Below, piece after piece: positions 22,602-32,000 of a DNA stretch of 32,000 nt. The notes below the pieces were generated by a model, which was not told where the DNA came from, made no database searches, and worked only from the letters and a program-made list of their open reading frames with translations. The position numbers and the translations under genes were made by a program. Within the stretch, counting starts at the first letter, position 1, and the number at the start of each line of letters is the position of its first letter. Source of the DNA: Vulcanisaeta distributa DSM 14429 (GTDB taxonomy: Archaea > Thermoproteota > Thermoprotei > Thermoproteales > Thermocladiaceae); contig NC_014537.1 of the NCBI RefSeq assembly GCF_000148385.1, positions 1,560,001 to 1,592,000 on the forward strand, written 5' to 3'.

Positions 22602-23585
22602 TTACACTCTCATCTGCTTAATGTCTGGGAAGTCATCTTCAAAGTACTCATGCTCACCCCTAATACCCTTGCTTCTCTTCTCACGTTCAAGGCCCCTAAG
22701 TTCAACACGCCTGATCTTACCGCTGATTGTCTTAGGTAGTTCAGGCACGAACTCAATAGCTCTGGGCCTCTTATACGGCGCTATGTTAAGCCTAATGAAC
22801 TTGAATATGTCATGGGCCAAATCCTTACTTGGTGTGTAGCCTGGCTTAAGGACAATGTACGCCTTTGGTATAAAGCCCCTTATCGGGTCTGGGCTTGGGA
22901 CCACGGCAGCCTCAGCAACGGCCGGGTGCTTCAATAAGTCACTCTCCAGTTCAAACGGGCTAATCCTATAGTCGCTTGACTTGAATACGTCGTCCGCACG
23001 GCCAACGAAGTATAGGTAACCCTCCTCATCCATGAAAGCCACATCACCCGTGAAGTACAGGCCGAGCCTAAACACCTCCCTATTCTTATTTTCATCATCA
23101 TAACCAACCATTAGGCCAATCGGCCTTGGGCTAGTCCTAACGGTTATGTGCCCATCCTTATTAATACCCACGGGATTCCCATCCTCATCAACGAGGACTA
23201 CGTCATAGCCAGGGGCTGGTTTACCCATTGAGCCAGGCTTAATCTTCATGCCGGGGAAGTTACCAACCATGAGCGTGGTCTCCGTCTGCCCATAGCCATC
23301 ACGTATGTACTTACCCGTGGCCTTGTAGACACGCTCAATTACCTCTGGATTAAGCGGCTCGCCGGCGCTCACGAAGCTCTTAATCTTCTCTAAGTTATAC
23401 TTCGTTAAGTCCTCGAGAATTATCATACGCCAAACAGTTGGTGGCGCACATAGTGTGTCAACACCGTAATTCTCAAGAATCTTCAAATGATTAGCCGCAC
23501 TAAACCTACCACTATAGTCATAAACCACGGTAGTGGCACCAGCATTGAAGGCTGCGAAGAATGTCGACCAAGCCCACTTAGCCCG
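22602..23585 (-). pseudogene. C-terminal fragment of an AMP-forming (medium-chain/acetyl-type) acyl-CoA synthetase; no start codon of its own
   Basis: In-frame homology begins at (R)AKWAWSTFFAAFNAGATTVVYDYSGRF and continues through CAPPTVWR, GYGQTET, YFTGD, GRADDV and PKTISGKIRRVELR (ANL-family core motifs). Confidence 0.85.
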
Positions 23586-23591
23586 AGAATG
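23583..23591. repeat. 9-bp direct repeat CCGAGAATG (copy 1) at the lower junction of the insertion
   Basis: An identical 9-mer occurs at 25324..25332. The two copies bracket the inserted segment. Confidence 0.8.
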
Positions 23592-23598
23592 TGAGGTT

Positions 23599-25065
23599 TT
23601 AGGCCCATGGGCCCTGGGCGGGGCAATTTAGCCTCCTCATTGCCTTGGTTGCTTCTTCGCGCATTCTTTTAAGCACTTCGCAGACTTTAATGACCAGCTC
23701 TGGGTATTTCTTAATTGTACTCATGTTCATGTAGACTACGAACTTCTTGCCCTGCTTACTTAATTCGGCTTCGTAATTAGCACCTCGAAGTTTTTCCCAA
23801 ATTGCCTTAGCATCCTCGAAACTCTTACGGTTAGTCCTTAACTCCACTGAGCCGTCTTGTCTCACGTGGACGTTCATTGATATGCTATCAATTATACTAA
23901 TTGACCATCTGCCTTTTTGCTTGACTCTTATATTTGCTAGCATTATTAAATTCCTTAATTTTTCCCCATCCGGCAAAGCGCTTAAATCCTTGATTATAGT
24001 TGCAACTTCTTGGTTATTGAGCCATCTCTGAGCAAGGGCTACGGCCTTGAAGGACCTAATTTCGAAAACTTTCACGTCTTTTTTATCGTCTTCGTCAAAT
24101 CCGCATTCCCTTAACCTTTTAGTTATATTACCCCACGTCTCATATTTCGAATCGCCTATTGTAAGTCTGACTCTCCTTTTTTCAATATCGATATTGCCGT
24201 CTCCGAAAACGGCGGCCAATAAAAAGATTAGAAAGTCTTTCTCATTCATATTGAGAATCTTCCTAACAATCTTAATCTTATCTTTGACTTTATTGTTAAT
24301 GGAAACTAAGCATAATTTAACTTTAATATCATTGTTAATATTTACGTTATCTATATGTATATATACTTTATTTGACCATGCTAGCGCCCAAATAATTGAT
24401 TGCCAGAGATAAACTGTACTCATTTCTGGACGGTTTTGGATAACTGATCCATCTGTTAGTAACAGACCGTATCTTATTGCTTTGGATATGTTATTTTTCA
24501 GCGTGTTAGGCGTAATAACGTGTATACCTTTTAGTTTCTTTAATGCTATAGCCATTGTTATACCCTTCTCCTTAGCCATTTTGTGCATCCTGATTGTTAA
24601 ATGTTCCGTATATATGTATATTATAAACGATTCATTCTCGTTAAATGGCTCGCCTCGCATGATTATTGTTGCCTCACCTCTCCTTAACTTTTCAATCAAT
24701 TCCTCAAGCTCTCTTCGATAAGTCCTCAGCCACTTTTCTCGTGCTTGCCTCACGAGCTCAATCATCTTCTTGGCTGCCTCGATCATTGCCTTCCTCAGTT
24801 CGGCGATGGTTGGGTCATTGTTCTCCTTGGCCTTCTCCTCCATGCTCGTTAGCCAAGTATCTAGTTCGTTGATTGTTTTATCGAACGGCGTTACCGACTC
24901 ACTTAATAGCACGCCTTTGTGCTTCTCCACCCTCCTAAGGAACTCATTGATTAACTTCATTACTTCCTCGATTGTTTTTGGGTCGTTGACGGACTCACCG
25001 CATTGAAGCCGCTTATTACCCCTTACCTTCACGCCCCAGCAAATCCTCAAGCCGTTAAGAGCCAT
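23599..25065 (-). CDS. double-LAGLIDADG-like homing-endonuclease-family protein with long N- and C-terminal extensions
   Basis: Two dodecapeptide-like motifs lie about 85 aa apart: AIRYGLLLTDGSV and FLIFLLAAVFGDGNI. The region after motif 2 (RVRLTIGDS...ALAQRWLNN) resembles the I-DmoI C-terminal half (RLRIWNKNK...IVSRWLNN) as I remember it. The N-terminal ~190 aa is helical and charged, with a conserved CWGVKV.G.KR..CGE.VNDP start. Confidence 0.78.
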   Translation of the reverse strand: MALNGLRICWGVKVRGNKRLQCGESVNDPKTIEEVMKLINEFLRRVEKHKGVLLSESVTPFDKTINELDTWLTSMEEKAKENNDPTIAELRKAMIEAAKKMIELVRQAREKWLRTYRRELEELIEKLRRGEATIIMRGEPFNENESFIIYIYTEHLTIRMHKMAKEKGITMAIALKKLKGIHVITPNTLKNNISKAIRYGLLLTDGSVIQNRPEMSTVYLWQSIIWALAWSNKVYIHIDNVNINNDIKVKLCLVSINNKVKDKIKIVRKILNMNEKDFLIFLLAAVFGDGNIDIEKRRVRLTIGDSKYETWGNITKRLRECGFDEDDKKDVKVFEIRSFKAVALAQRWLNNQEVATIIKDLSALPDGEKLRNLIMLANIRVKQKGRWSISIIDSISMNVHVRQDGSVELRTNRKSFEDAKAIWEKLRGANYEAELSKQGKKFVVYMNMSTIKKYPELVIKVCEVLKRMREEATKAMRRLNCPAQGPWA

Positions 25066-25148
25066 GGTACATCCATGGGACTAATCCCAACAAGGCTAAT
25101 AAGTCACTACCGACCCAGTGCTGAATTGAGTTAAGCACATAATTGAAA
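25066..25148 (-). repeat. 83-nt conserved leader immediately upstream of the LAGLIDADG-type ORF (copy 1)
   Basis: In element orientation it aligns by hand, with two single-nt indels, to 31405..31487 at roughly three quarters identity. It starts TTTCAATTAT and ends ATGGATGT(A/T)(C/T)C before the ATG. Confidence 0.7.
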
Positions 25149-25323
25149 GAAACCAAGCACCTAAGGGCGTAAGGTCATGCACGGAGCACAACCAATCCAC
25201 AGTCAGCACCCACATAAGCAATAAACTAAAAGCAGCAAGGCAAAAACAAAATGTAATAAATCGTGAGGATAATGAGGGGAAAATACCTTCTTATTTATTG
25301 ATTTTCACGAACCACTGAGATAA

Positions 25324-25332
25324 CCGAGAATG
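25324..25332. repeat. 9-bp direct repeat CCGAGAATG (copy 2) at the upper junction of the insertion
   Basis: Identical to 23583..23591. Confidence 0.8.
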
Positions 25333-26099
25333 CCAGGGCTTGAGATGTTCATGTGTCTATAACCGGGCTTGGCACCCACCCAGTACATCGTTGTTAGGTG
25401 GCCGATTGGGTAGCTTGAGTGGGTGTGCATTACCATCTTCGGCTTAGCCGTCGTACCAGACGTGAAATAGACAAGTAACAATTCATCGGTTTTAGTCCTA
25501 ACTCCCTGGAAGTTCTCAGACTTACCACTCGTTAATTCGTAATAGTCGAGCCAACCAGGGCCTGGCTTACCGAGGGTTATGAAATACTTAACACCAAGCT
25601 TCTCAAGCCTATCCCTAACCTGGTTAATCTTGTTAACAACCTCTGGGTCGGCGATTATTGCCTTGAAGTGCGCCCTCGCAGCCCTATCCTCAATATCCGC
25701 CGGTAATAACAGTGTGGTGGCTGGCGCAATCACGGCGCCCATCTTCATGAGCGCCAGGAAGGTCTCAAAGAGCTCAGGTCTGTTGTTGAGCATCACCATG
25801 ACGACATCTCCACGGCCAATGCCCAGCTCGGTGAGTGCGTTGGCTAGTCTGTTAGATCTGGCCCTAAGCTCGGGGTAACTAAAGATCCTGGAATCACCGG
25901 TCTTAAATAGCTCATCATTTATGTATACGAGGGCGGGGTTTGTGGCTGTCTCTGCAAGATGCTTATCGAAGTAATCCACAGCCCAATTAAACTCGCCAGG
26001 CGGTGGCCACCGGAAGTTCGCCTTAGCCTCCTCATAACTACCCGCATTTAAGAGCATGTTTCTCTGTTTAAGGAACTCGTCAAGAACTACGCTAGCCAT
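25332..26099 (-). pseudogene. N-terminal fragment of the AMP-forming acyl-CoA synthetase
   Basis: 256 codons with the P-loop-like motif YFTSGTTAKPKMV, ending ...HMNISSPG. The reading frame then runs 8 codons (ILGYLSGS) into the insertion and stops at 25305. An A/T box lies upstream of ATG 26099. Confidence 0.85.
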
Positions 26100-26302
26100 T
26101 ATAACTTAGTGGTTCTTGATATTAATAAATTTTATCTTATTATCTTAATAGTATATTCATTAAGTGAATTAGCATATTAGATCAATAAGTGCTGTAGTAT
26201 GTTAAAAATAAAAATTATTAATCAGCTCGTCTCTTCCTAAATCACCGGTCATCCATATCATCGACCCATCATCACTAGAGTAATTATTTTTATTCGGGAA
26301 TT

Positions 26303-31404: not shown

Positions 31405-31487
31405 TTTCAATTATATACTTAATTAAATTTAGCACTAGATCGATAGTGATTTATTAGTCTTACTGGGGATTAGCTTATGGATGTTTC
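31405..31487 (+). repeat. 83-nt conserved leader upstream of the second LAGLIDADG-family ORF (copy 2)
   Basis: Hand alignment to the reverse complement of 25066..25148. Confidence 0.7.
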
Positions 31488-32000
31488 ATGGCTCTTGAGA
31501 TTGCTAAGCCATTGAGGGTTTGTTGGGGCGTTAAGGTTAAGGGCTCAAAGAGAATTGTGTGCGGTGAGACTGTCAATGATCCAAGGATAATTGAGGAGAC
31601 CATGAAATTGATAGGCGAGTTCTTAACCCGAGTCGAGAAGCACAAAAGTGTACTATTAAGTGGTTTAGCGACGCCGTTTGACGACGTAATCAATGACTTA
31701 AGTAATTGGTTATGGTCGATTAGGGAGAAAATCAAGGGAGGCAATGATGAAAATATCGCAAAGCTAAGGATGGCAATGCTCAAGGTAAGCGAGAAAATGT
31801 TAATGCTCGTGAGGCAAGCTAAGGAAAATTGGCTAAGCATATTCAAACCAGAGCTCGAGGAACTAATCGAGGAGCTAAGGAAGGGAAAAGTTGAGGTAAT
31901 AATAACGGGAGAGCCGTTTAATGAGGATAAGAGCTTCATGGTGCATCTATACACAGGACACCTGGCGATTGGGGTGAGTAGGGTTAGGCGAAGTGTGACT
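31488..32000 (+). CDS. paralogue of the 488-aa LAGLIDADG-type protein; N-terminal 171 codons only, truncated by the window edge
   Basis: My own translation from ATG 31488 is open to nt 32000: MALEIAKPLRVCWGVKVKGSKRIVCGETVNDPRIIEETMKLIGEFLTRVEKHKSVLL...ITGEPFNEDKSFMVHLYTGHL. It is collinear with the N-terminus of the 23599..25065 product and roughly half the residues are identical. It is absent from the ORF track because it has no stop codon in the window. Confidence 0.82.
   Translation, partial: MALEIAKPLRVCWGVKVKGSKRIVCGETVNDPRIIEETMKLIGEFLTRVEKHKSVLLSGLATPFDDVINDLSNWLWSIREKIKGGNDENIAKLRMAMLKVSEKMLMLVRQAKENWLSIFKPELEELIEELRKGKVEVIITGEPFNEDKSFMVHLYTGHLAIGVSRVRRSVT

Follow-up and report, generated by a model that had tools for sequence, protein, structure and literature searches.

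An insert encoding a predicted LAGLIDADG-fold protein splits an acyl-CoA synthetase gene of Vulcanisaeta distributa

Introduction

Free-standing homing-endonuclease genes of phages can split protein-coding genes. The nrdA gene of the Aeromonas phage Aeh1 is reportedly interrupted by mobE and functions as a split gene, and the seg and mob genes of phage T4 are further free-standing phage homing-endonuclease genes. The archaeal LAGLIDADG nucleases known to us are passengers of rRNA- or tRNA-type introns and of inteins, which hide the insertion from the host. Here we describe a locus of the crenarchaeon Vulcanisaeta distributa DSM 14429 in which, unlike in these archaeal cases, a putative LAGLIDADG nuclease stands naked in a protein-coding gene, that of an acyl-CoA synthetase (ACS). 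The locus lies in a stretch of 32,000 nt (contig NC_014537.1, positions 1,560,001 to 1,592,000), hereafter the window, to which coordinates refer unless another locus is named. We consider it probable, if far from certain, that a free-standing LAGLIDADG homing-endonuclease cassette recently disrupted the ACS gene in the DSM 14429 lineage. Most likely, the cassette comprises its own leader and one large LAGLIDADG enzyme, has no surrounding intron or intein, and sits at the Ser-Pro-Gly-Trp-Ala site of the host gene.

By analogy, the phage genes provide a close conceptual precedent outside archaea, so that the shape of the element would not be a wholly new category. Features common to the phage genes and the Vulcanisaeta cassette are their own expression signals, the lack of an intron or intein, the orientation of the host gene, the location in a conserved region, the two open reading frames (ORFs) left in the host gene, and presence/absence polymorphism between relatives. 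However, the phage enzymes belong to the HNH or GIY-YIG type, whereas the Vulcanisaeta enzyme is of the predicted LAGLIDADG type and is encoded on an archaeal chromosome. Unlike the phage genes, the cassette has at least nine diverged copies per genome and a 9-nt repeat at its junctions, and a working split enzyme is known for the phage only.

The rRNA-intron endonucleases I-DmoI, I-PorI, I-Tsp061I, and I-Vdi141I are also crenarchaeal, and two of them, I-Tsp061I and I-Vdi141I, come from Thermoproteales (PMC2602781, PMC4496867). They resemble the window protein in the single-chain double-motif fold and in the highly conserved insertion sequence. In contrast to these enzymes, the window cassette is not carried by a bulge-helix-bulge (BHB) intron and its host is a protein-coding gene. 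The window protein is also about 2.5 times larger (measured against I-DmoI), has three extra domains and its own conserved 85-nt leader, and lacks Pfam-level membership.

Results and Discussion

The acyl-CoA synthetase gene in two pieces

The minus-strand ORFs 25305..26099 and 22602..23528, judged by their sequence, are the collinear halves of one AMP-forming ACS of the ANL family. The first corresponds to positions 1-187 of the 384 positions of the Pfam AMP-binding domain, and the second, when its frame is extended (22602..23600, minus strand), to positions 220-383 of the same domain followed by AMP-binding_C. The two halves together have the domain composition of the ANL superfamily, an AMP-binding N-domain plus AMP-binding_C, and are collinear with full-length orthologues. 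At the DNA level, the 5' part with homology to orthologues (25333..26099, minus strand) is 80% identical to positions 1-767 of the intact allele L001, and the 3' part (22602..23584, minus strand) is 87.6% identical to positions 770-1752. The N-terminal ORF continues past the break to a stop at 25305, which adds eight foreign residues, ILGYLSGS. In the 3' part, homology restarts at GG GCT AAG (..AKWAWSTFF), and the first in-frame start is a GTG at 23528.

Other Vulcanisaeta have full-length, uninterrupted ACS orthologues of 583-585 aa with 83-90% amino acid identity, and a further truncated empty allele (protein P0006 from locus L024) is 94% identical to the window ACS. The intact orthologues all read HMNISSPGWAKWAWSTFF, and exactly one residue of this stretch, the Trp, is missing from the window halves. 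The closest solved homologue is the 4-hydroxybutyrate-CoA ligase 8BIQ (E 4e-155), which carries an identical Gly-Trp-Ala-Lys at the break position, and the second-best is MacS (3ETC). The original prediction, made from the DNA letters, had described the two ORFs as halves of one ANL-family gene, had placed the break at a conserved Trp, the only residue expected between PG and AK by a MacS-type motif, and had put the insert at about 1.75 kb. The relatives agree with it on each point: instead of two separate genes they have a single intact one, reading SSPG-W-AKWAWS, the MacS-type motif proved sound, and alignment to the empty alleles gives an insert of 1747 nt.

The surroundings are conserved as well. 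In relatives, the ACS gene has the same neighbors, in the order GH15, EamA, ACS, KaiC-like ATPase, a 167-aa ORF, ChsH2, and thiolase, and about 18.5 kb around it is collinear with locus L022 of a Vulcanisaeta metagenome-assembled genome (MAG). An independent assembly of reads, apparently from the genome project of this strain, contains the same truncated N-terminal half of 264 aa. The insertion is real in the DSM 14429 lineage. Against orthologues, the halves have a ratio of nonsynonymous to synonymous divergence (dN/dS) of 0.03-0.045, and dN is not elevated on the host branch; given saturated synonymous sites, this shows only that the halves have no visible decay. Because neither half has decayed, the insertion is young compared with the split from the sampled relatives. 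The ACS gene would now be a pseudogene in two open pieces, and the insertion almost certainly amounts to a knock-out, with presumed loss of the host-gene function. Annotation should treat the pair of ACS ORFs as a single disrupted gene. The disruption itself is ordinary in its consequence, and the interest of the locus lies in the enzyme family.

The region between EamA and ACS also differs among strains. Other Vulcanisaeta have here an ORF of 171-172 aa without a Pfam family (L022, 9296-10021; L024, 2352-2870), while in the window the gap (26079-26214) is only about 136 nt.

The insertion point and its junctions

The junctions were mapped by DNA alignment to three uninterrupted alleles, L001/L022, L002, and L024, which defined the exact empty site, as the original prediction had hoped for from relatives. 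The last of these (L024, 3760-3775, Logan DRR017688) encodes P0006 and is the closest empty allele, but it contains what look like sequencing errors in homopolymers (SSPPGW, GRGGDVV) and is frameshifted at its 3' end, and its junction bases need caution. Calling the two host parts exon 1 and exon 2, the last base of exon 1 is 25332, in the codon GGC (...AAGCCCTGGC), and the first base of exon 2 is 23584 (GGGCTAAGTGG, that is, GG GCT AAG). At this point the empty alleles read GG(T/A/C) TGG GCT, for the protein sequence ...SSPG-W-AKWAWS. The cassette of 1747 nt (23585..25331, minus strand), missing from the three empty alleles in conserved synteny, replaces the T of TGG, the Trp codon. The empty ACS loci lack any homologue of the ORF of the insert, which encodes 488 aa. 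Since a C precedes GGGCT, no join of the two parts rebuilds TGG. The reconstructed empty site is ...CATCTCAAGCCCTGGCTGGGCTAAGTGGGC... / ...CACATGAACATCTCAAGCCCTGGCTGGGCTAAGTGGGCTTGGTCGAC..., and this one putative target, the Trp-motif sequence of ACS, can thus be reconstructed exactly.

The junction is not clean: apart from the lost T, a 9-nt direct repeat of non-target origin, CATTCTCGG, surrounds the insert, with the 5' copy at 25324..25332 and the 3' copy at 23583..23591 (both on the minus strand). With two mismatches the repeat grows to 14 nt (CCTGGCATTCTCGG), and the first 6 nt of its left copy belong to exon 1. The 3' copy is preceded by AAAACCTCA, a 3'-terminal motif common to several copies of the cassette family. 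A classical target-site duplication is rejected: collapse of the 9-nt repeat would leave 7 extra nt and a frameshift, and CATTCTCGG is missing from each of the empty alleles. We also rejected the explanation that the insert begins with a decayed copy of the exon 2 start, as the similarity past the 9-mer did not reach significance (p = 0.2-0.6).

The left junction resembles the 3' end of a cassette (..AAAACCTCAC ATTCTCGG) joined to the 5' end of a cassette (TTATCTCAG..). This could mean that the captured DNA came from a circular or tandem donor and was a little longer than one unit; a GG microhomology would then have closed the right join, at the cost of the T. The head-to-tail junction expected of such a circular or tandem form is ..AAAACCTCAC-ATTCTCGGTTATC.. 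/ ...GGGCCTAAAACCTCAC followed directly by ATTCTCGGTTATCTCAG....

If the element is a homing-endonuclease cassette, its acquisition may have proceeded in three steps. The LAGLIDADG enzyme would have made a double-strand break in or near GCCCNGGNTGGGC, a sequence that is pseudo-palindromic in L001 and L002. The break would then have been repaired by copying the cassette from a donor. Finally, imprecise sealing of the right-hand join would have cost the TGG codon its T and repeated a few bases from the cassette start.

The putative target site itself (window 25341-25333 / 23584-23570) has the form GCCCN-GGN-TGGGC, pseudo-palindromic in the two alleles named above, and CAAGCCC and GGGCTTG can pair as a hairpin across it. 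Both the pseudo-palindrome and the hairpin derive from the codons of Ser-Pro-Gly-Trp-Ala-Lys-Trp-Ala-Trp and are present in uninterrupted alleles too.

Introns, inteins, and insertion sequences

The original prediction regarded the insert as neither an intein nor an insertion sequence (IS), a description that held. Like the LAGLIDADG inteins PI-PfuI, PI-SceI, and Tli VMA, the cassette places a putative nuclease at a conserved motif of a protein-coding gene. Unlike in these inteins, the window ORF is out of the host frame, following a non-coding leader of about 265 nt, the host frame stops eight codons past the break, and a Hint domain is lacking. An intein is rejected on these grounds; neither a Pfam match to Hint or intein families nor splice-junction residues were found.

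Archaeal insertion sequences have in common with the cassette a multi-copy distribution, gene disruption, a flanking direct repeat, and an association with assembly breaks. Unlike them, the cassette has no match to a transposase family and no terminal inverted repeats, its flanking repeat is neither target-derived nor a target duplication, and its copies are 35-58% identical rather than near-identical. A classical IS is rejected.

Group I and group II introns are rejected, as no Rfam match was obtained at the gathering score in the window or at E <= 1 in 23450-25450. For crenarchaea, interruption of a protein-coding gene is known from the BHB intron of the cbf5 mRNA (PMC2738675). The cbf5 introns are short and ORF-less, and their proper BHB motif allows the frame to be restored (PMC2738675); the window insert differs from them in all three respects. 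We scanned all pairs of splice sites for BHB motifs. For the best of these motifs (25330/23576; h8, H4, h'2), cleavage at any of the bulge positions gives an out-of-frame join, and uninterrupted orthologues contain its long helix too. The sole in-frame candidate, a relaxed hBH motif with exon 1 ending at 25323 and exon 2 starting at 23579, is rejected as well: a candidate of this kind occurs by chance in 13% of shuffles, and the product would read SSPG-ILG-KWAWS, with Ile-Leu-Gly instead of Trp-Ala and without the Trp.

These data bear on the question of whether the host gene still works, either because the mRNA loses the insert (through the archaeal splicing endonuclease acting on a relaxed BHB motif or by another route) or because the two polypeptides assemble. 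Both halves are open and have strong signatures of purifying selection, the cassette has the host orientation with its stop codon only 15 nt before exon 2, one relaxed in-frame hBH candidate exists, and phage nrdA with mobE is said to be a working split gene. Nevertheless, we regard a functional host gene as very improbable. The strongest BHB-like fold is out of frame and its long helix is shared with intact orthologues, the in-frame candidate is of the chance kind and alters the conserved Trp-Ala, no join restores TGG, and there is no Rfam intron match even at the permissive threshold. In addition, the C-terminal half has no start before the GTG at 23528, so that 18 core residues would be lost.

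The 488-residue protein and its leader

The single long ORF of the insert (23599..25065, minus strand) encodes a protein of 488 aa and has the orientation of the host gene. Its product is 100% identical to a DSM 14429 entry labeled as a hypothetical protein. The protein is predicted to have a double-motif, single-chain LAGLIDADG fold, and nuclease activity would be the expected function. An AlphaFold model built on 26 homologues (mean pLDDT 88.3) contains an N-terminal beta-hairpin with long helices (residues 1-130), a small beta-sheet domain (133-185), a double LAGLIDADG core (about 190-380), and a C-terminal alpha/beta domain (388-478). In residues 191-380 of the model, two consecutive alpha-beta-beta-alpha-beta-beta-alpha units follow the secondary-structure order of LAGLIDADG proteins. 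Nearly all significant Foldseek matches in the PDB are LAGLIDADG proteins, with probability 1.0; they include PI-PfuI as the top match, the Tli VMA intein, E-DreI, I-Tsp061I, I-DmoI, the bI3 maturase, and WhiA. For I-DmoI and I-Tsp061I, the target-normalized TM score is about 0.5. Matches in the viral library BFVD are again nearly all LAGLIDADG enzymes.

The two LAGLIDADG motifs are YGLLLTD205GS and LAAVFGD289GN. In characterized enzymes, the acidic residue that ends each motif binds metal. Among the 26 aligned sequences, D205 is invariant and D289 is at least 90% conserved. The modeled fold, together with the aspartates at both catalytic positions, bears out the single co-oriented LAGLIDADG-like ORF that had been proposed from the letters. 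At the level of family profiles the similarity is low: the window protein has no Pfam or NCBIfam match at E <= 1, four of the 26 family members have weak matches to Pfam LAGLIDADG_3 (best E 1.2e-4), and five match LAGLIDADG_WhiA (best E 0.015), with none seen to reach a curated cut-off.

Upstream of the ORF, a leader of about 85 nt (25066..25152, minus strand; TTTCAAT..GCTTAA..ATTCAGCAC..AGTGACTTATTAG..TGGATG) is conserved across copies and is probably a promoter or 5' untranslated region. No conserved RNA structure was found in it, the consensus fold having only -2.4 kcal/mol. The remaining 5' part of the insert, about 180 nt (25153..25331, minus strand), is AT-rich and poorly conserved between copies.

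WhiA among the structural matches raises another possibility, that the 488-aa proteins form a domesticated host family, for example of WhiA-like DNA-binding regulators, and that the break in ACS is an unrelated rearrangement that carried a paralogue. The paralogues are old and diverged, some keep one locus in several strains (L010, L012, L016), and the leader resembles a conserved promoter or operator. On the other hand, both motif aspartates are conserved, unlike in WhiA, the whole cassette is cleanly present or absent at two sites, copies are frequently frameshifted and often stand at contig ends, and the inserted DNA amounts to exactly one cassette, without further rearrangement. We find this origin hard to credit.

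Three minor features deserve mention. The nuclease core of the window copy (24050-24650, residues ~131-380) has 31-35% GC versus 40-48% in paralogues, and its identity to paralogues is 35-45%, compared with about 52% among the paralogues themselves for this region; the N- and C-terminal parts are not unusual in GC or divergence. The AT-rich divergent core could reflect relaxed selection or a shift of specificity. Residues C22, C462, and C481 are invariant in eight full-length sequences and C9 is largely conserved; these cysteines sit in the N-terminal hairpin and the C-terminal tail (..LNCPAQGP) and may bind a metal that holds both protein ends together. Finally, a 12-nt inverted repeat around the ORF (25084-25073 / 23610-23599) was considered as a functional stem and rejected, since it is not conserved and has no co-variation in paralogues.

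The cassette family in Vulcanisaeta

A word-indexed search yielded 26 homologues, all from Vulcanisaeta. An exhaustive profile search produced 200 clusters (50% identity), of which 144 had E <= 1e-10, and the named distant full-length members that we checked are all from Vulcanisaeta, with the sole exception of one fragment from a MAG labeled Infirmifilum. No closer relatives of the window endonuclease were found in JGI metagenomes, and our literature searches returned no description of this archaeal cassette family. The DSM 14429 genome contains at least nine loci of the family with 35-58% identity to the window copy, and 15 cassette loci were fetched in a genome scan of other strains. Exact-protein look-ups of three DSM 14429 paralogues, P0123-P0125, gave no record. 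Some paralogues occupy one locus across several strains, namely, the three mentioned above. Most full-length copies in other strains are frameshifted and several are found at contig ends; both features fit the invade-then-decay cycle of selfish endonuclease genes. The family is multi-copy, mostly intergenic, often decayed, and almost entirely restricted to Vulcanisaeta, and it is behind a considerable number of the "hypothetical proteins" and of the assembly breaks in genomes of this genus. Should the enzymes be active, they would make up a naturally diversified collection of thermostable meganucleases that carry an unusual three-domain extension.

A second, diverged copy starts in the window and is cut by its end (31406..32000, plus strand; 58% amino acid identity over residues 6-165). 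Identical to P0129, it lies 5.4 kb away from the first copy, points the other way, and stands upstream of the aCPSF1 (beta-CASP) gene; its leader starts at 31406 and its ATG is at 31489. This copy is complete in L023 (5918-7560) and missing from the syntenic locus L022. It provides the second site with a presence/absence polymorphism of the cassette, in addition to ACS. Its flanks carry a 12-nt repeat, AAAACCTA(A/C)TAA, whose left copy already exists in the empty allele.

Comparison of copies shows that many cassettes share the 3' end AAAACC(N)CA directly after the stop codon, while the 180-250 nt upstream of the 85-nt leader are variable. The L005 copy has a flanking repeat of about 60 nt that runs into a tRNA 3' end. 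The remaining copies have no significant flanking repeat, and k-mer and repeat searches across copies found no general terminal repeat or left-end motif.

These observations suggest an alternative scenario, in which the cassette is a transposon-like or integrative element and goes in next to DNA similar to its own 3' end, perhaps by way of a circular or tandem intermediate. Here the LAGLIDADG-fold protein with its extra domains would be the mobilizing enzyme or a cargo, instead of an agent of classical homing from allele to allele. Flanking direct repeats are seen in three copies (9-14 nt at the window copy, 12 nt at the second copy, about 60 nt in L005), the left repeat of the second copy pre-existing in the empty allele; the left junction of the window copy resembles a cassette 3' end fused to a 5' end; three copies abut tRNA genes, with many sites per genome; and the 3'-terminal motif is common to copies. 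However, the cassette has neither terminal inverted repeats nor a fold or family of integrases or transposases, most copies lack a significant flanking repeat and the 9-mer is not target-derived, the level of identity between paralogues is unlike that of recently transposing IS copies, and the similarity in L005 may be one of tRNA to tRNA. We consider such movement unlikely, if worth keeping in mind. It is likewise doubtful that the cassettes represent an undescribed class of archaeal mobile elements, in which a LAGLIDADG nuclease acts like a transposase and spreads to many chromosomal sites including coding sequence. The unit of that class would be 1.75-1.9 kb long and consist of the variable leader, the conserved 85-nt leader, and an enzyme of about 500 aa with extra N- and C-terminal domains. 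If the transposon-like movement were true, it would be a new mechanism for the archaeal mobilome.

Several observations weigh against our preferred explanation, the disruption of ACS by a free-standing homing-endonuclease cassette. No orthologue of the window endonuclease (>58% identity) was found at the ACS site or elsewhere, and homing between alleles is therefore not observed. The 9-nt direct repeat at the junction is not predicted by classical homing, and the paralogues are located at many unrelated sites, mostly intergenic or tRNA-adjacent. The AT-rich divergent nuclease core may mean that the window copy is inactive, and the intact halves could mean that the ACS gene is still in use.

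The copies that directly abut tRNA genes are located in L005 (5516-5591, tRNA-Asp), L012 (5561-5663, an intron-containing tRNA), and L015 (3618-3705, tRNA-Ser), and the left boundary of the L005 copy is a 5'-truncated tRNA-like sequence. In L018 (5529-6509), the copy P0126 is followed after about 40 nt by a co-oriented ORF of 307 aa that holds only MoCoBD_2, the C-terminal part of the aldehyde-oxidoreductase large subunit; the N-terminal part of the subunit is not upstream in L018. This locus may represent a second gene disruption combined with a rearrangement.

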